64,000 nucleotides of DNA from an uncultured virus (IMG/VR IMGVR_UViG_3300031772_000015) (taxonomy: Duplodnaviria > Heunggongvirae > Uroviricota > Caudoviricetes): IMG/VR virus record IMGVR_UViG_3300031772_000015; one strand, written 5' to 3'. Under the pieces are notes generated by a model that worked only from the letters and a program-made list of their open reading frames with translations, ran no database searches and had not been told where the DNA came from. Positions 395 to 45,821 of this stretch are shown one piece after another (the stretch's first letter is position 1; the number at the start of each line of letters is the position of its first letter). The position numbers and the translations under genes are program-made.

Positions 395-465
395 TGGCGG
401 GTAGTGGACTCGAACCACTGTGAACGGCGTATGAGACCGTTGAGATGCCACTTCTCGAACCCGCT
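395..465 (-). tRNA. tRNA with CAT anticodon (Met; initiator-like 1:72 mismatch)
   Basis: Reverse complement folds as a cloverleaf: acceptor AGCGGGT/ACCCGCC, anticodon loop CTCATAC, T-arm GGTTCGAGTCC. CCA is not encoded. Confidence 0.85.
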
Positions 466-468
466 ATA

Positions 469-550
469 TGGGGCAGTAGGGAATCGAACCCTATTGGTCG
501 TGTGACCGGCGGGTTTACAGCCCGCTGCCCGTCCATCGAGCATCTACCCC
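469..550 (-). tRNA. tRNA-Tyr (GTA)
   Basis: Acceptor GGGGTAG/CTGCCCC, anticodon arm GCGGG-CTGTAAA-CCCGC, long variable arm, T-loop GTTCGATTC. Confidence 0.92.
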
Positions 551-5638: not shown

Positions 5639-5941
5639 TTACCGAAGCAACAAATTAAGGGGTGAGGTACAATCCTCCTCCACCGACACGTCTACCATAC
5701 TTTCATACTCAGGTTGAAAGCGACAAACCAAAGCCCAACACACGTCCCCAGCAGGATCATCGTTATCGTCTTCTTCTCGTAGATACGAGAGAATGAAATC
5801 GTATAACGTATCCGCATCGGGCGTTTGGACTTCCACGTCGGTCACTGTCCCATCATCCAAAAGCATCTTGAGGTAGGCACCTGTAAGGCGGCGTCCCCAG
5901 TGGCCTCTGGCTAGAACAATGTGTAACCGAATAACTCTCAC
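5639..5941 (-). CDS. Hypothetical protein
   Basis: GGAGG RBS; overlaps the helicase stop. Confidence 0.55.
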   Translation of the reverse strand: MRVIRLHIVLARGHWGRRLTGAYLKMLLDDGTVTDVEVQTPDADTLYDFILSYLREEDDNDDPAGDVCWALVCRFQPEYESMVDVSVEEDCTSPLNLLLR

Positions 5942-7896
5942 GTTGCCTCCATGACTACTAATTCGCCATCTTCACTGGAATCCATCCAATTAACATCCGC
6001 CATGATTTCGCCCATCGTCATCAACTCCAACTTTCGATTCTCCCGGATCACCTGCAAGACGCGCTCATCGCTAGGCAAGTGAATCAAGTCAACGATGGTA
6101 CAACCCTTGTTCAAGTCCATTCCGATTCGGTGAATCCGATCCTCAGATTGAACCCGGTATTCGGGTTTCCAACTATTGGACCAGTACACCGACATCCTAG
6201 CCTCGACCAACGTGAGACTCATGCCGCCGGATTCCGGGTTTGCTGCGAACACCACGCGAGGATGGTCCATATTCGCCCAATAATCCAATGGTTCCTCAAC
6301 GGTATTCACACCTTCATCCGTGAGCACTTGGAAGTTGCCCTGGTCACACCGCACAACATTCCATTTATCCTTGAGGCAAAGTCGCACGATGCGGTCAACG
6401 GACCCTGTAAAGCCAGCAAAAACTACAAGCCGCCCAACTTCCTCATTCTCGTCAAGCAACATCCTGAGAGCGGCATCCTTCGGGCATGGAACTTCACGGG
6501 TGACCCGAATCATCTTCACTACTTCCTTCGTGCCACCACACGTCGGGCAAGTGATCGACTGCTTTTGCAGTCGAGCAATGGTATCCGGGTCAAGAAGGTC
6601 GATGGCCTGATAAGTACGTTCGGGTGAGTCAGGATCACTCCACTCCGCAATCGTGCCATCAGTACATTGCCGACACGCCACCATACCGTCTTGCTCTTCA
6701 CGATATTGAAACCCATCGCTCAATTCTCGCAGAAGCGTCATGCCGGTGATAGCGTTCGGAGCCGATTGCACGATGGCTTCGGCAACACGCAATGCACTGG
6801 CAGTCGGTTTGCAAACAATCTTGCGGTAGCGCTTATCAGGCAAGCTGAGGCAATCTTTCTTATGTTTAACGATGACCAAGCCTTTGAGGCGGTCATTCAA
6901 GTACGCCACTTCGTTCTTGCTTGGCTTGTAGGCGTGGTAATCTTCGGGGTCTGCGCACTCGTCGAGTTGGTGTGGACCTTCGGCTTCCAATTCGCCGCAC
7001 TCCGCGCACTTCTTTTCGTCATCCTTCCAGCCAGTACGTTTCTTGAAGGTGCCAGAATCATAGGATTGCTGGACCATGAAAGCCATGCGCTCTTCCATCG
7101 CCCGTTGGCTGCCTTCTCGAAGAAAACCAGGCCAGGCAATTTCACATTGGCTCCACCAGTCCACGGGTGTCTTCGGTGACGGCGTTCCCGACATCTCAAT
7201 CACGTAACCCTTGAAGCCATGATGCTGCCGAATCAAGTCTGCAAGACGTTGGCACGCACGCGAACGTTGCGATGTGCTATTCTTGGTTCGGCTTGATTCA
7301 TCCTCGATAAAACCCAATGGCGGAATGGCGTCGGGTGCCCACTCGTCCATAACGCGAACAAGACCTTCATAGGTGAAGAACTCCACCTGAATCCGGTCGA
7401 AGGGAAACTGCCATTTCTTCAATTCACGTTTGATATTCGGGATACTGGTCTTCGGCCCGGCCCACCACCACACTGGAATCCCCGACCGTTCCATGACCTC
7501 TTGGGCCGAAAGTGTCTTGCCGGTGCCCATCTCGGCCGCAAAGATTTGATAGTGATAGGTGAGACCGCTGTCCGACATATCGCACTGGTGCGGCATCAAC
7601 GGACGTTCGTACTCATGCTGGATCAACGGCCGGTCGAACCAAGCATAGACATCCTCACCACATAGGAACGCGAGTTGGAAGTTGTTGCGCTGGCAGTCAT
7701 CAACCGACCACATCTTGCGCGGGTCTTCCTCGTCATAGCCGTGCCATTTCGAGCCGCGCATGGCCTTGATCTCGTCCTTCAAGGCGAAAGGAGACTTGAC
7801 GAAGAAAATACGACCGTCCTTTCGCTCAATCAAAGCAGGCACCCGAACTAGGGTGCCGCTCGACGTGCGGACGGTCATTTTGATATTCTCAATCAT
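5938..7896 (-). CDS. SNF2-like superfamily 2 helicase with Zn-ribbon inserts
   Basis: Motifs EMGTGKT, DES, SGTP, GGMSLTL and QSEDRIHRIG; CxxC inserts. Likely start MIENIK at 7896 (GGAG RBS). Confidence 0.88.
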   Translation of the reverse strand: MIENIKMTVRTSSGTLVRVPALIERKDGRIFFVKSPFALKDEIKAMRGSKWHGYDEEDPRKMWSVDDCQRNNFQLAFLCGEDVYAWFDRPLIQHEYERPLMPHQCDMSDSGLTYHYQIFAAEMGTGKTLSAQEVMERSGIPVWWWAGPKTSIPNIKRELKKWQFPFDRIQVEFFTYEGLVRVMDEWAPDAIPPLGFIEDESSRTKNSTSQRSRACQRLADLIRQHHGFKGYVIEMSGTPSPKTPVDWWSQCEIAWPGFLREGSQRAMEERMAFMVQQSYDSGTFKKRTGWKDDEKKCAECGELEAEGPHQLDECADPEDYHAYKPSKNEVAYLNDRLKGLVIVKHKKDCLSLPDKRYRKIVCKPTASALRVAEAIVQSAPNAITGMTLLRELSDGFQYREEQDGMVACRQCTDGTIAEWSDPDSPERTYQAIDLLDPDTIARLQKQSITCPTCGGTKEVVKMIRVTREVPCPKDAALRMLLDENEEVGRLVVFAGFTGSVDRIVRLCLKDKWNVVRCDQGNFQVLTDEGVNTVEEPLDYWANMDHPRVVFAANPESGGMSLTLVEARMSVYWSNSWKPEYRVQSEDRIHRIGMDLNKGCTIVDLIHLPSDERVLQVIRENRKLELMTMGEIMADVNWMDSSEDGELVVMEAT

Positions 7897-7952
7897 CCGG
7901 TATCTCCCACACACCTAAGCGATATTCAAGCACCTTTGGACCATGAATTTCC

Positions 7953-8129
7953 CTAAATCTCGTCCTTTTCGATCCAATCCGCCACCATCATCAAGACGTA
8001 TGCCTCGGGCGGCGTTCGGGTCATCGCTCGTTGCCGCAGTGCCGTTGCAAGCCGGATACGTTCGTTTACACGCTCGCTCTCAATTACCACCAACGGGGGT
8101 TCAATCAACAATGACATCGGAAACTGCAT
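7953..8129 (-). CDS. Small hypothetical protein
   Basis: MQFPMSLLIEP...VADWIEKDEI. The RS-rich N-terminal extension in the ORF track looks like an off-frame read of a repeat. Confidence 0.45.
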   Translation of the reverse strand: MQFPMSLLIEPPLVVIESERVNERIRLATALRQRAMTRTPPEAYVLMMVADWIEKDEI

Positions 8130-8142
8130 GACTGTATTCCAA

Positions 8143-8307
8143 TTATCTGTGTAGAGGCTCAGGTCGAGGTTCGGGCCGTGGCGACCGTGGCGGCCGTGGC
8201 GACCGTGGTTGCGGCTGCGGCTGCGGCTGCGGCTACGGCTGCGGCATGGACACGGGCGGTCGGCAACCAATAAGCAACAGTAAACTGGCGAGAATCAACT
8301 TTCGCAT
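8143..8307 (-). pseudogene. Pro/Gln/Arg-rich lipoprotein interrupted by an in-frame TAG
   Basis: AAGGA RBS; MRKLILASLLLLIGC lipobox; CCG-CAG repeats with one CCG-TAG (stop at 8233-8235). Confidence 0.55.
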
Positions 8308-9878
8308 TGAATCCTTCGGGTGGCAATCTCGTAGTTATGGGGGTCCAGTTCAATCCCGATGCACCTGCGACCTAGTCGCCGGGCGGCCACGAGTGTCGAA
8401 CCACTGCCAGCAAATGGGTCCAGGATAAGTCCCCCATCCGGGGTTGAAAGCAAACCCAACAAATACTCCATCAGAGTCAGGGGCTTAACAGTGCTGTGCG
8501 TGTTGCCGCGCCTTCCTTTTGCGCTTATCCGCGACAACACGCGCGATGCTGCACTGACGGCACTCAGCAGTGACGCCATCGTGCCGCTTGTAGAAGTCCG
8601 CAATCGGTCGATGTCGTCCGCAACGGCGACAAGGTTTAATCCAGCCGCCAGCAACATCTCTGTAGCACCCAGAATGGATGCGTTTGTGTTCGAGGAAGGT
8701 GAGAAGTTGCAGGTTCTCAATTCGATTGTCAATCTTATTAAAATTGACATGATGGATGCAATAGCCATCCGGGATTGGTCCGTAATGTTGCTCCCAGACA
8801 ACATCGTGTTCCATGCGGCGTCGGCCAGACGGTGTGTGCCAATAACGGATATATCCCTGATCTGTTTCAGCAACTCGTCCGTCTCTTGGCTTAGGTCCAC
8901 ATCTTCCCATGTCACCACCTTTTCACAACCTTTATTTCGCTCGTTGGTTGTTGCTTTAGCACAATAAAAAAATCGACTTGCCCCGCCAGAATCATTGGGA
9001 TATTCACGGCTGAGATGATTGTTGATACCCCAAGTCGTACCCTCCACGACTGCGTTCTTACTCCGCTCGGATCGTTTCCCAGTGACACTAAGCCGCCCAG
9101 TCTGCTCGTCCAACTGCGCGGCAGCCTCTTCATCCAACAACACGTTCGCAGGCCACCGGCCGCACTCGGACCCGCCTACGGGTGAGCGCTTCGTACTCGC
9201 CCAACCAGCCACGGTCAAACTGTCCCCGCGCGTGCGCACGGTACTCTCGGTGCCAACCCGACTGGCTTCAATGTTCATCCCCGCCACGTCCCAAGTCAAA
9301 GCATTGTGAGCAATCGTCCCGTCCATCGGTTTCATCGCCAGGACGATTGGTTCCCAAGCCGGTTTCAGGGCCATAGCCCAACCAGTCCACTTTGCTGCCT
9401 CGGGTGTGGCCGGGGCCGTGATAGCGCACTCAGCCTCGGGATTATGTAGGTCGCCATAGACTTCGTTCGTGCGGCCATTATTGGCGAGCGAATAACCAGG
9501 TTGACCTAACTTGGTGCCTATAATCTCGCGTTTGGCTCCCTTTGACTTGTCGATCATCTTTCCGATGTCACCACACTTTGGCATCCCCTGCCCATAAAGC
9601 CACATTAAGGTGTCTCGAATCTCCCACCCCGCATCTTCAATCGCACAAGTCAGCCGATGATAGGTTCGTGTGCCACCGAACGCCAAGAGTAACGCACCAG
9701 GTTTGCAGACACGCAAGATTGCCCGCCAATACTCCGGTCCTGGAACCACATGATCCCAACCTTCTCCCATGAAATTTATCCCGTAGGGCGGGTCCGTAAC
9801 TACATAATCCACGCATGACTCAGGCAACGTAGCAAGAACATCCCGGCAATCACCTTGATACAACGTGATGTCTTTCAT
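8295..9878 (-). CDS. DNA N6-adenine/N4-cytosine methyltransferase with a roughly 140 aa insertion
   Basis: Motifs DPPY, ALKPAWEP, GRWPAN, RFFYCAKA, HSTVKP and DPFAGSGST. The insertion lies between ERNKG and NTHSTVKP. Confidence 0.9.
   Translation of the reverse strand: MKDITLYQGDCRDVLATLPESCVDYVVTDPPYGINFMGEGWDHVVPGPEYWRAILRVCKPGALLLAFGGTRTYHRLTCAIEDAGWEIRDTLMWLYGQGMPKCGDIGKMIDKSKGAKREIIGTKLGQPGYSLANNGRTNEVYGDLHNPEAECAITAPATPEAAKWTGWAMALKPAWEPIVLAMKPMDGTIAHNALTWDVAGMNIEASRVGTESTVRTRGDSLTVAGWASTKRSPVGGSECGRWPANVLLDEEAAAQLDEQTGRLSVTGKRSERSKNAVVEGTTWGINNHLSREYPNDSGGASRFFYCAKATTNERNKGCEKVVTWEDVDLSQETDELLKQIRDISVIGTHRLADAAWNTMLSGSNITDQSRMAIASIMSILIRLTIELRTCNFSPSSNTNASILGATEMLLAAGLNLVAVADDIDRLRTSTSGTMASLLSAVSAASRVLSRISAKGRRGNTHSTVKPLTLMEYLLGLLSTPDGGLILDPFAGSGSTLVAARRLGRRCIGIELDPHNYEIATRRIQCES
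8485..8910 (-). CDS. HNH endonuclease with C-terminal Zn finger, nested out of frame inside the methyltransferase
   Basis: EHDVVWEQHYGPIPDGYCIHHVNFNKIDNRIENL is an HNH motif; CRRC...CRQC follows; own RBS (AAGGTGGTG) upstream of the ATG. Confidence 0.85.
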   Translation of the reverse strand: MGRCGPKPRDGRVAETDQGYIRYWHTPSGRRRMEHDVVWEQHYGPIPDGYCIHHVNFNKIDNRIENLQLLTFLEHKRIHSGCYRDVAGGWIKPCRRCGRHRPIADFYKRHDGVTAECRQCSIARVVADKRKRKARQHAQHC

Positions 9879-12065: not shown

Positions 12066-12096
12066 GGTAGTTTCCTTTTGGTTTCCTTGTGATTAG

Positions 12097-12332
12097 TGGA
12101 GACGGAGGGAATCGAACCCTCGTGTCAGGACGTTTCTATGCCGGTGTCTACGTGTGTAATCGAAACTCGAACTCAACACAAACTCGAAACAAACAAGCAG
12201 TCAGTCGCTAGGCTGCCATAGCAAATTGCGGTTTGGCAATTAAGGTTTTAATCGGCTTTTAACGTGGCCCACCGATCAACCACGACACGCAACCAAACAC
12301 ATCATCCGTCTGATCGAATCCAATTCGTCCCC
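12097..12332 (-). ncRNA. ssrA: tmRNA (compact, about 236 nt)
   Basis: 5' GGGGACGAATTGGATTCGA and 3' GGTTCGATTCCCTCCGTCTCCA form a tRNA-Ala-like domain with G3-U70. A pk1-like pseudoknot is followed by the tag ORF AKPQFAMAA-stop (12208-12237). Confidence 0.92.
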
Positions 12333-43744: not shown

Positions 43745-45074
43745 TTAGCCGAGCACCGGAACGCAGAGGGCAGCGTTCAGAACCGCCACACCCGCGAGGA
43801 TGTCGCAGTTGACCACGGTGCCACCGGCGTTGATGTCGTACTGCATGAGCACGCGCATCCCGATGCCGTTGTGAGGAACCACGGCGGCCATGACACCCAT
43901 GCGGCTGTCGGGCAGAGCCAACGGCCGGGTGATGAGCGCCAGGGCGTCCCGATGGAACGCCAGGTTCAACGCACCGTATGGGCCGGGGTATGCGGCGTCC
44001 GTGTTGACCACCGCAATCTCCAATGGCCGATCCAGGTACACCGTGCAAGTCGTACCAGCGTCCTCAGACTCGATGACCGTATAGGTATGCCGCCCATTGA
44101 GGGTTACCCCAAAGGAGAGCAACTGGCCAACTTGCGGAGCCTTGGCCGTGGTGTAGGTATCAAGGACGATACCCTTGCTCCAACCCTTGGCGTAATCAGC
44201 CGCTACACCAATCTTCTTGTAGCGCGTGACTACCGCACTGGTCAGCACGGTATTCTTGAGGGGTTCGTTGAGAACAACCGCGCCGGAAGTCTTATCGAGC
44301 ATCCAGGTGGGTTGATCGTTGCCAGCGATATTCAGATACTCGCCAGCGAACCCAGTGACCACGATATTGAAAGCCCCGGCGTAACCGGCATCCTGACCAG
44401 CAACGAGTGTCAGGGGGCCTGCGTCAACATCCGCACCCGTCAGGACGTTGTTCACGTTCTGATCCATGTAGGTGTCGAAACCGAGGATACGGCCGAGGAT
44501 GGCGTTTTCCAACGCTGATCCACCATCACCACGCTGATCGGCCCTGATGAACAGTTCCGTCTTGAGCATGGCAGTCTCGCTACCCGGAGCCAGGACGAGC
44601 CGACGCCCATCCACGGGAGCCTTGTTGACGTTCAACCGCTCACGAGCATCCAGGCAGTAGTCCCTGGCCGTCGCAGCCGCCAAGCCACCCAACCGACCCA
44701 CACGACCAGCGGCAGGAGTGCCGAGGTAAGCGTGAACGCGACCGAGCAAGGCGCGGTCGATGCCACGGCTGATGGACAGCATGGCGGGTCGGAGGTAAAT
44801 GTCGGTCAATTCTTGGAAGGACTTGCTGCCTTCCCCGTCACGGATCACGAAACTCTGATAGAACCACTGGTCCAAAGTCACCGGCACATTGGTCGCGGTG
44901 GCGTCTTGCTGGACGAGGGTGGTCCCATCGGTCTTCCGGCGAATCTTGAACTCACCCGGACGACGGGTGTTCACGACATCGCCGAACTTGGCGATTTCGT
45001 TCTCAAAGTCACGATGGACGAGGTTAGCCATGACCATGTTCTCTTCGAGAATGGCCAAGCCTTCCTGTGCCCAA
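43745..45074 (-). CDS. Major capsid protein (P22-coat-like), exon 2
   Basis: WAQEGLAIL...GDVVNTRRP...G.LG.ILGFD...NLAFHRDALAL...DILAG. Confidence 0.9.
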
Positions 45075-45747
45075 CAATCTGTTACCAACTCTTTCGAGTC
45101 GGGCGGATCATTTCTGTCCGCCTCCTTGCATCGCTGCAAGGTTCAGACTATATCTTCACCCGATCTTTGATAAATCTTACACAACACTCCAACCGTTGAA
45201 GATGTTCTGTTGATTCATCCCGTAAAAGATGATTGCACGTTAAACATATCACGCCGCGAACAACTCCATCAACATGGTGGATATGTTTATGTTGTTGATT
45301 CTTGAATCCTGAACCACAACATTCACACTGACCAATCGCGTACAGTCGCACAACTTCATCTCGCGTCATTGAATACCGAGACATTGCTTTATGCAACCGT
45401 TGACAAACTTTACAGTAATGATACGGACAATCCTTAACACTGCAAAACTCTGTCACCAATTTCCACGTCGAACAATCCGTACACCACGCTCGTCCATCCT
45501 TGATTGTGCGCTTCCAACCTCTTGTCGGAATGTCATAGTGGAAACCTTCGCTAATCTTCGTTGCAACTCTCTTTCGTTTCGGGGCAGGGCGTTCAGTCGT
45601 TGAGGGTTCCCTTTCGGGTCTTCCCTGCTGATTGACCGCAGCACTCAGATTTTCACGCATCGCGTACTGGTGCATACTCGGTGTTTCCAGCATATAGCCC
45701 TGTTGTTTCATTGATTGTCACCAACCAAAGGAGCCTTGGGTTAATCA
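45075..45747 (-). mobile_element. Group I intron (673 nt) in the major capsid gene
   Basis: P1 GAGCU/GGCUC with a U-G pair at the 5' splice site; P10 CCCAA/UUGGG; core elements ATGCTGGAAA, AATCAGCAGG, CAACGACTG and AAGATATAGTC; terminal G. Splicing restores IPELWAQE. Confidence 0.92.
45148..45711 (-). CDS. Intron-encoded endonuclease VII-like homing endonuclease
   Basis: CECC...HIHH.DGVVRGVICLTCN plus an N-terminal CxxC..CxxC. Start position uncertain. Confidence 0.82.
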   Translation of the reverse strand: MKQQGYMLETPSMHQYAMRENLSAAVNQQGRPEREPSTTERPAPKRKRVATKISEGFHYDIPTRGWKRTIKDGRAWCTDCSTWKLVTEFCSVKDCPYHYCKVCQRLHKAMSRYSMTRDEVVRLYAIGQCECCGSGFKNQQHKHIHHVDGVVRGVICLTCNHLLRDESTEHLQRLECCVRFIKDRVKI

Positions 45748-45821
45748 AGCTCAGGAATGTAGGCATCCAGGACGTTCTCGTAGCAAGCCACGAAAGCCCG
45801 GTTTTGGTACAGACGATTCAT
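45748..45821 (-). CDS. Major capsid protein, exon 1
   Basis: AGGAG RBS; MNRLYQNRAFVACYENVLDAYIPE(L). The joined CDS is 1404 nt (467 aa). Confidence 0.88.

Follow-up and report, generated by a model that had tools for sequence, protein, structure and literature searches.

A homing-type HNH endonuclease gene nested out of frame in a variable loop of a phage DNA methylase gene whose own frame stays open

How can a complete endonuclease gene lie inside a DNA methylase gene, in another reading frame, while the methylase frame itself runs on without a stop? The question is raised by a 64,000-nucleotide (nt) stretch of DNA from an uncultured Caudoviricetes virus (IMG/VR record IMGVR_UViG_3300031772_000015), hereafter the window, in which a 527-amino-acid (aa) methylase open reading frame (ORF) spans a 143-codon insert encoding a 141-aa HNH endonuclease. 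A preliminary description, made from the letters and an ORF list, had proposed a splicing-free homing nuclease living in a tolerant loop, with the host frame kept open. This proposal is supported by the nature of the loop, by the open host frame in 54 of 90 HNH loci, by the substitution patterns of the two frames and by the scattered distribution of the insert. Judged by sequence comparison, read-through translation with the insert retained is the best-supported mechanism and likely the correct one for this hidden HNH cassette, which is of the type described for the ShiLan domain of mycobacteriophages. The features of the locus are the following.

8295 to 9878, minus strand: N6/N4 (beta-class) DNA methylase ORF, 527 aa, spanning the insert (ORF list; PF01555, 1.3e-26; model core compared with solved structures)
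8937 to 9878, minus strand: methylase 5' host part, residues 1-314, with the C-terminal end ...SRFFYCAKATTNER (alignment with insert-less alleles)
8508 to 8936, minus strand: 143-codon insert replacing 'GP' of the insert-less ...ERGPGNDHPTVKP (DNA and protein junctions against 15 insert-less alleles)
8485 to 8910, minus strand: homing-type HNH_3 endonuclease ORF of 141 aa and a stop codon, its C-terminus bearing a CxxC...CxxC zinc ribbon (PF13392, 5.4e-16)
8915 to 8921, minus strand: Shine-Dalgarno (SD)-like AAGGTGG, 4 nt 5' of the HNH ATG at 8908-8910 (sequence)
8485 to 8487, minus strand: HNH stop TAA, formed by methylase GTT-AAG, the V-K of HSTVKP (junction alignment)
8295 to 8507, minus strand: methylase 3' host part, GNTHSTVKP..., DPFAGSG and stop (alignment; third-position-biased divergence)
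8359 to 8967, plus strand: 202-aa antisense ORF, outside the element, its frame codon-complementary to the HNH (no Pfam match)

The HNH ORF lies wholly within the methylase ORF, on the same strand and in frame +2 relative to it. It had been described as complete and equipped with its own ribosome-binding site (RBS), and the coordinates, the AAGGTGG motif and the PF13392 match all agree. The same AAGGTGG serves as methylase codons for K-V-V, and GGAG- or AGGT-like motifs are found 5-10 nt upstream of the HNH in many relatives that are nested in a methylase but lack an intein. The methylase frame had been said to contain no stop and to resume towards its S-adenosylmethionine (SAM)-binding motif, as the ORF and its in-frame motifs bear out: DPPY (9783-9794) and DPFAGSG (8400-8420) are both intact in one shared frame, and the N6_N4_Mtase Pfam match (1.3e-26) consists of two stretches with the insert between them. 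The HNH stop was rightly placed within the STVK codons, its TAA coming from GTT-AAG, and it falls within xxT-AAR of [V/I/L]-K in at least nine of 18 intein-less nested representatives. Across ten HNH relatives, the motif RMEHDVVWE...HH..N...N..L...H..H and four cysteines are conserved, while searching solved structures by sequence with the HNH family returned nothing at E <= 0.01. In the nearest record (G001), the single HNH copy is the same locus. The antisense ORF was considered as a gene and rejected, having no Pfam match and being open equally in both classes of relatives (14 of 28 intein-less nested and 13 of 27 free-standing loci); this equality makes it a by-product of codon usage.

Where the insert sits can be read from methylases with and without it, an alignment that the preliminary description had proposed and in which the insert replaces 'GP' in a loop of variable length. 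Methylase homologues come in two lengths, about 390-400 aa (...ERGPGNDHPTVKP) and about 525-545 aa, the longer ones carrying the same insert, in frame and open, down to 45% identity. The claim that a short variable loop is occupied also holds, as the loop before HPTVKP measures 2 to 45 residues in insert-less relatives; in some methylase relatives it contains a CxC...CxxC ribbon. The insert boundaries are precise to a few codons, with a start near 8918 if ERNKGCEK represents native loop. The insert length is divisible by three, the HNH ATG lies 26 nt within it, and the last 23 nt of the HNH extend into the conserved methylase motif. Read in frame on its own, the insert matches no Pfam family. 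Among fragmentary DNA contigs of four sediment runs, one from a relative about 90% alike joins 8405 to 8962; an insert-less relative from the same habitat is possible there, and the contig is too weak to use.

Could the open frame be luck? For the HNH protein of the window, an exact synonymous-codon calculation gives a probability of 0.037-0.039 that the host frame is open. At this locus alone, the open frame could be luck, and the comparative loci rule luck out. A sample of 90 HNH loci (54 viral and 36 genomic) was retrieved with the HNH rather than the methylase as query, so that gene calling cannot bias it. The host frame, +1 relative to the HNH, is stop-free across the HNH in 54 of the 90, where it belongs to a methylase ORF of 500-950 aa. 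In the 36 loci that did not score as nested, that frame contains 2.77 stops per 100 codons. Applied to 23 representatives below 80% aa identity, the same calculation gives probabilities of 0.004-0.30; their log10 values add up to about -26.5, a sum that caps the strength of the evidence, as the lineages are related. Frame +2 relative to the HNH is open in none of the loci, and its probability of being opened by synonymous choice is below 1e-4; because this other shifted frame cannot be opened synonymously, the relative frame is always the same, as it is in ShiLan.

The preliminary description had held frequent stops in the methylase frame of homologous inserts to be at odds with its proposal. 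They were not seen: 31 of the 32 nested loci without an intein have an intact host frame, and the remaining one, L055, contains a decayed methylase. On a Planctomycetaceae metagenome-assembled genome (MAG) contig of 1.07 Mb, L055:1479-2932 holds an HNH copy 88% identical to that of the window; the surrounding methylase has an upstream frameshift and stops 7 nt past the HNH match. This decaying copy on a bacterial chromosome contig is probably a prophage remnant. The reverse situation is seen in L018, L035 and L080, where the HNH frame has internal stops and the methylase or intein frame is open throughout. The host frame therefore matters more than the HNH, and the pattern is as expected late in a homing cycle.

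Substitutions show which frame carries selection. Within the overlap, differences follow the HNH frame (third position > first > second), and in host-frame reading the overlap is most variable at the second position (.36/.54/.44). 3' of the insert, the host frame gives.41,.32 and.64 at the first, second and third positions (461 pairs, 31 intein-less nested loci). This is the pattern of purifying selection on the 3' host part in its own frame, so the segment is translated in frame in insert-bearing lineages. The selection pattern set out in the preliminary description was thus recovered, with purifying selection on the HNH frame within the overlap and a stop-free methylase frame; purifying selection on the methylase resumes downstream.

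These data also bear on the possibility that the methylase is already dead, its frame being open through recent insertion or to avoid polar effects downstream. A single window has a 4% chance of an open frame, and the methylase may be dispensable, as the ShiLan authors argue for theirs (PMC11855218). Yet all 23 lineages below 80% HNH identity are frame-open, the catalytic DPPY and the SAM-binding DPFAGSG are intact, and purifying selection acts at the amino acid level on the 3' host part of insert-bearing lineages, which polarity alone would not demand; what decay looks like is seen in the clearly decayed L055. A dead methylase is accordingly regarded as very unlikely.

If the methylase is made, is the insert first removed from the RNA or skipped by the ribosome? 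This could be the work of a cryptic ribozyme, of splicing assisted by the host or of a long bypass during translation, and the same phage does carry a genuine group I intron with a nuclease ORF at 45124-45752. However, comparing 8200-9300 with Rfam at E <= 10 matched no intron family, whereas the same library recovered the intron at 45124-45752 (minus strand) in the same window as RF00028 with 51.8 bits. Only 26 nt of the insert lie outside the HNH ORF. Moreover, removal at this level makes an open frame unnecessary, but the frame is kept in 54 loci where about 2-3 stops would be expected in each. To our knowledge, the longest translational bypass is that of 50 nt in T4 gene 60. Ribosomal bypassing, offered as an alternative in the preliminary description, is disfavoured for the same reason, and removal at the RNA or ribosome level as a whole seems extremely improbable. 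The group I intron adjoins an ORF at 43745-45139, called a capsid gene in an earlier note, and contains an ORF at 45148-45711 (minus strand) of 187 aa with zinc-finger and H-N-H-like motifs, a classical intron-borne nuclease.

Removal could instead take place in the protein, the insert being translated and then excised or cut by an unrecognised self-processing activity to leave a mature methylase without it. Such processing also needs an open host frame, and the HNH lineage does occur inside inteins. At 23 nested loci, the host frame is a canonical intein (HP|CLCPG...TGNHPF...SHN|TMKP) in ParB-methylases, mostly Betaproteobacteria-associated, with the HNH relative out of frame in mid-intein and in the same shifted frame as that of the window. 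The intein site (HP|T) is located only about three codons downstream of the 3' junction of the window insert. The remaining 32 nested loci, which include the window and L055, have no Hint domain. In the window, neither the methylase nor the in-frame insert alone matched Hint, Hint_2 or Intein_splicing in Pfam, though the same scan recovers the inteins of the 23 intein-bearing relatives; together with the Rfam result, this upholds the earlier claim that neither group I core elements nor HINT motifs are present. The window insert likewise does not show the full intein signature (N-terminal Cys/Ser with blocks A and B, and a C-terminal block G ending in Asn before Cys, Ser or Thr), and because the HNH ORF occupies the whole insert, no room is left for the roughly 110 residues of splicing blocks. 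An intein reading of the form 'C'EKVV...GN|T was rejected, as the Cys or Ser at the insert start is not conserved (P0115 has neither) and the +1 residue after GN varies among homologues (T, V, L, I, F). Removal at the protein level is thus considered unlikely, with a small residual probability.

How the insert reached the methylase is best judged from its distribution. On a tree of 90 close methylase homologues, built by a quick search from an alignment stripped of the insert columns, 81 rows lack the insert and nine have it; these nine require eight changes (at least seven of them forced by well-supported branches) against 8.7 when shuffled. P0006, the nearest relative of the window methylase on this tree (79%), has no insert. 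L001, which is identical to the window, and L004 show differences of.08/.14/.14 in the overlap and of.24/.15/.58 in the 3' host part; the insert is far more alike than its flanks, and younger. The sporadic distribution, the young insert and the decayed copies lend indirect support to homing by the HNH. The phage probably infects Planctomycetota, because its nearest relatives L055 and L056 sit in Planctomycetaceae MAGs.

The HNH lineage is also found outside methylase ORFs. Among the 36 loci that did not score as nested, the HNH immediately follows a complete ParB-methylase gene in 31; four have no methylase motif nearby, and one is L055, nested in its decayed methylase. The free-standing relatives (L057, L040, L060, L063, L078, L083 and 25 others) were observed behind ParB-N6_N4 methylase genes in Planctomycetota genomes, and six of the seven methylase stop/HNH start junctions inspected display an ATGA overlap together with an SD (GAGGAG upstream). 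Such a neighbour could be a homing gene placed next to the gene that it targets, or nuclease and methylase could form a functional pair. In an unrooted HNH tree, from which 22 of the 90 loci and the window row (identical to L001) were omitted as short, broken or duplicate, the three layouts cluster yet require five changes: 24 free-standing copies form one clade, and the intein-less nested and the intein-borne copies each fall into two groups.

A functional pair would imply a restriction-modification-like unit, nested for co-inheritance or co-expression and not for homing. In its favour, the HNH lineage always accompanies a beta-class methylase, whether inside the loop, inside an intein or behind the gene; 31 of the 36 not-nested loci follow a complete ParB-methylase gene, and six of the seven junctions inspected combine ATGA with an SD. 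However, 81 of 90 close methylase homologues do without the insert, its presence on the host tree is as scattered as random, and it is younger than its flanks. Broken HNHs beside an intact methylase in L018, L035 and L080 are also difficult to reconcile with a pair, and residence in inteins is characteristic of homing nucleases. In phages, homing genes that stand free are usually neighbours of the gene they target, as are the seg and mob genes of T4. Phages Tiff81 and Sashimi display just such a free homing gene next to its target (PMC11855218 section 3.6). The restriction-modification-like unit, also raised in the preliminary description, is therefore disfavoured, as sporadic distribution does not fit it, and a functional pair is judged improbable.

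Under read-through with retention, the following course could be envisaged. An HNH_3 gene would have been copied into DNA encoding a surface loop of the methylase, just 5' of HPTVKP and one base off the host frame. Ribosomes starting at the methylase ATG would traverse the insert and yield the 527-aa methylase with 143 extra residues bulging from the loop, in the window lineage probably as a small helical bundle whose two ends meet. Ribosomes starting at the internal SD and ATG would make the 141-aa HNH, which borrows its stop codon from the host V-K codons. In relatives that co-infect the cell or reside in it, the HNH would then cut insert-less alleles near the sequence coding for HPTVKP, and recombinational repair would copy the cassette into the cut allele (homing). 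Keeping the host frame open would cost only synonymous HNH codon choices.

If the insert is retained, what is the peptide that it adds to the methylase? AlphaFold2 modelling of the whole methylase (90 sequences) gave a mean predicted local distance difference test (pLDDT) score of 72.3, with residues 201-300 as the low-confidence part and a core matching the solved beta-class methylases TTHA0409, CcrM, M.BceJIV, M.RsrI and M.PvuII. The insert region (311-460) was all-helical, with block means from 66 to 94. Modelled by itself from 11 sequences, the insert was predicted with pLDDT 80.2 and a predicted template modelling (pTM) score of 0.79 as seven helices with a beta bridge pairing both ends. 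Fold searches with the insert model gave a best E of 0.34 in Foldseek and a best Z of 6.4 in VIA (a designed protein, globins), and no fold was assigned, because such matches show only an arrangement common among helical bundles. The composition of the peptide points in the same direction. Measured against 5,000 synonymous recodings drawn from the codon usage of the window, the host-frame peptide is poor in proline and glycine (.057 against.124 expected; 0.1% of recodings as low), has a low helix penalty (0.04% as low) and contains more charged residues than expected (0.28% as high), and all three shifts persist among the 207 stop-free recodings. Proline plus glycine is below expectation in 23 of 27 intein-less nested loci. 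Intein-borne peptides shift in the opposite direction, with a helix penalty above expectation in 14 of 14, and other intein-less nested clades look S/T/P/G-rich, not helical. A host-frame peptide shaped toward a helical fold is thus suggested, not shown.

Taken further, it could be speculated that the lineage switches among a coupled free gene, an intein passenger at HP|T and a naked out-of-frame insert, and that where no intein removes the peptide, the third positions of the HNH have shaped it into a Pro/Gly-poor, charged and compact helical bundle, which would then be a de novo overprinted domain of the mature methylase. This extended scenario is put forward tentatively, as a possibility that is more doubtful than not. 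A narrow literature search confined to titles and abstracts yielded no paper that ties all three layouts (free-standing, intein-borne, intein-less) to a single HNH lineage. Within the literature searched and read, three aspects are absent: the occurrence of the lineage out of frame inside true inteins at an adjacent site, its free-standing occurrence behind methylase genes, and the helix-shifted composition with a predicted compact helical bundle.

Several points weigh against retention by read-through and against the shaped peptide. Each step of the mechanism, from read-through and expression of the HNH to methylase activity and cleavage, is an inference, and an unrecognised protein-level excision would equally demand the open frame. 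The loci are related, so that a product of their probabilities overstates their independence. Synonymous divergence of nested HNHs is about half that of free-standing ones at equal aa identity (at 70-80% identity,.30 for intein-less nested,.32 for intein-borne and.54 for free-standing copies); constraint from the second frame, relaxation of selection on the HNH and a recent spread could each account for this. The high AlphaFold confidence for the helical insert rests on 9-11 related sequences, and helical sequences can be over-scored by AlphaFold. Finally, the steady association with methylases, even among free-standing copies (31 of 36), leaves room for a functional link between nuclease and methylase.

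Other inserts were observed in the same methylase family and its neighbourhood. In L004:78-2237, L120, L122, L139 and L134, a second insert lies in frame just past DPPY in the methylase ORF; it matches LAGLIDADG_1 (3.2e-6 in L004) without Hint and looks like the 'lone LAGLIDADG' of the ShiLan methylase (PMC11855218), and L004 has the hidden HNH too. L140:1257-1730 (also P0050 and P0116) displays an insert of about 158 codons after SRFF with the host frame open; its +2 frame holds an ORF with CxxCG...HH...CxxCH that is HNH-like by eye and has no significant Pfam match, and this may be a third hidden nuclease lineage of the methylase family. A helicase-like gene at L004:2194-4548, homologous to the window gene at 5938-7914, carries by eye a seemingly canonical intein with an in-frame HNH (C...HHKNG...VVHNC), which the window gene lacks. 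In L171 (phage MKC-IRE-02), a weak HNH-like tblastn match (H32, E = 8e-4) at 1501-1869 runs antisense to an annotated methyltransferase. Directly 3' of the window methylase, a small ORF at 7953-8270 (minus strand) consists mostly of RS and RHG repeats, with GC-rich short tandem repeats at about 8160-8255 (8199-8255 flagged as repeat by read mapping). The otherwise phage-like window also contains a tmRNA gene (Rfam, 95 bits) at 12094-12332 (minus strand) and two tRNA genes at 395-550 (minus strand).

The splicing-free homing-nuclease design is consequently not limited to mycobacteriophages but widespread and selected in environmental phages and prophages, being found in 54 of 90 HNH loci from Planctomycetota- and Betaproteobacteria-associated sequences. 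It also offers a natural experiment in dual coding, in which the second frame is free (2.8 stops per 100 codons), constrained to stay open, or possibly constrained to fold. Gene callers never report the nested HNH, and annotation treats insert-bearing methylases as long but otherwise ordinary ones, so that such elements are undercounted in surveys of homing endonucleases and inteins.

Among known systems, mobile group I introns resemble the window element in placing a selfish nuclease in a conserved host gene, at a conserved motif and with sporadic distribution. They differ in that the window insert has no detectable ribozyme core and keeps the host frame open, which introns do not require. 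Endonucleases in overlapping frames are also known from inteins. As far as the accessible parts of two preprints describe them, a cyanobacterial dnaX intein has a homing endonuclease in a separate overlapping frame (bioRxiv 10.64898/2026.09.14.751524), and actinobacteriophage inteins have an endonuclease VII-like gene in frame 3 (bioRxiv 10.1101/2025.01.02.630785). The 23 intein-bearing loci are of exactly this kind, being canonical inteins (C1, TGNHPF, SHN|T) that encode an HNH relative centrally, while the nucleases named in those parts of the preprints are LAGLIDADG and endonuclease VII-like, not HNH_3. The window element differs further in having no intein, so that its host-frame peptide is not removed. 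A further case is that of Pacc40 gp60, Tiff81 and Sashimi, in which one HNH lineage is either nested in a methylase or separate beside an uninterrupted one (PMC11855218). There, the methylase subfamilies are different, and the free HNH of Tiff81 and Sashimi lies upstream of the methylase, whereas the relatives of the window HNH lie downstream with an ATGA overlap at six of seven junctions.

The nearest counterpart is the ShiLan domain, on which Gosselin et al. (2023) is reportedly a further source. There, an HNH is hidden out of frame in the gp65 methylase of mycobacteriophages and in related proteins; the host frame is free of stops, neither intron nor intein is present, and the distribution is disjunct (Arsenault, Gosselin & Gogarten 2025, PMC11855218). 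Both inserts occupy one methylase family, in which the window methylase is 47% identical to that of phage Murica, and this family also carries a lone in-frame LAGLIDADG, as the ShiLan authors describe (PMC11855218). In both systems, the insert is missing from close relatives, is sporadically distributed, leaves the host frame stop-free and involves no intron or intein; the HNH begins a few bases within the insert, stops at its 3' edge and uses the same relative frame (third relative to the host, as checked in Murica). Both nucleases match HNH_3 and share 39% identity over 85 residues (E = 2e-7). They differ in site, the Murica insert following ALKP and the window insert lying in the loop before HPTVKP, and in architecture, the window nuclease having 141 aa and one C-terminal zinc ribbon while that of ShiLan has 195 aa and zinc fingers on both sides. 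The window HNH has an ATG and a clear SD, whereas ShiLan starts at GTG without an RBS and leaderless initiation is invoked; the window peptide is predicted as a helical bundle with high confidence, whereas ShiLan gives poor confidence or a hairpin (PMC11855218). The hosts are probably Planctomycetota in one case and Mycobacterium in the other. The shared layout thus places the window element with the ShiLan type, while the insertion site is different and the nuclease not orthologous, the 39% identity covering only the 85-residue HNH core. The design itself was already published in 2025 (PMC11855218), and the comparison indicates that the window represents a separate lineage of it, at a new site in the same methylase family.

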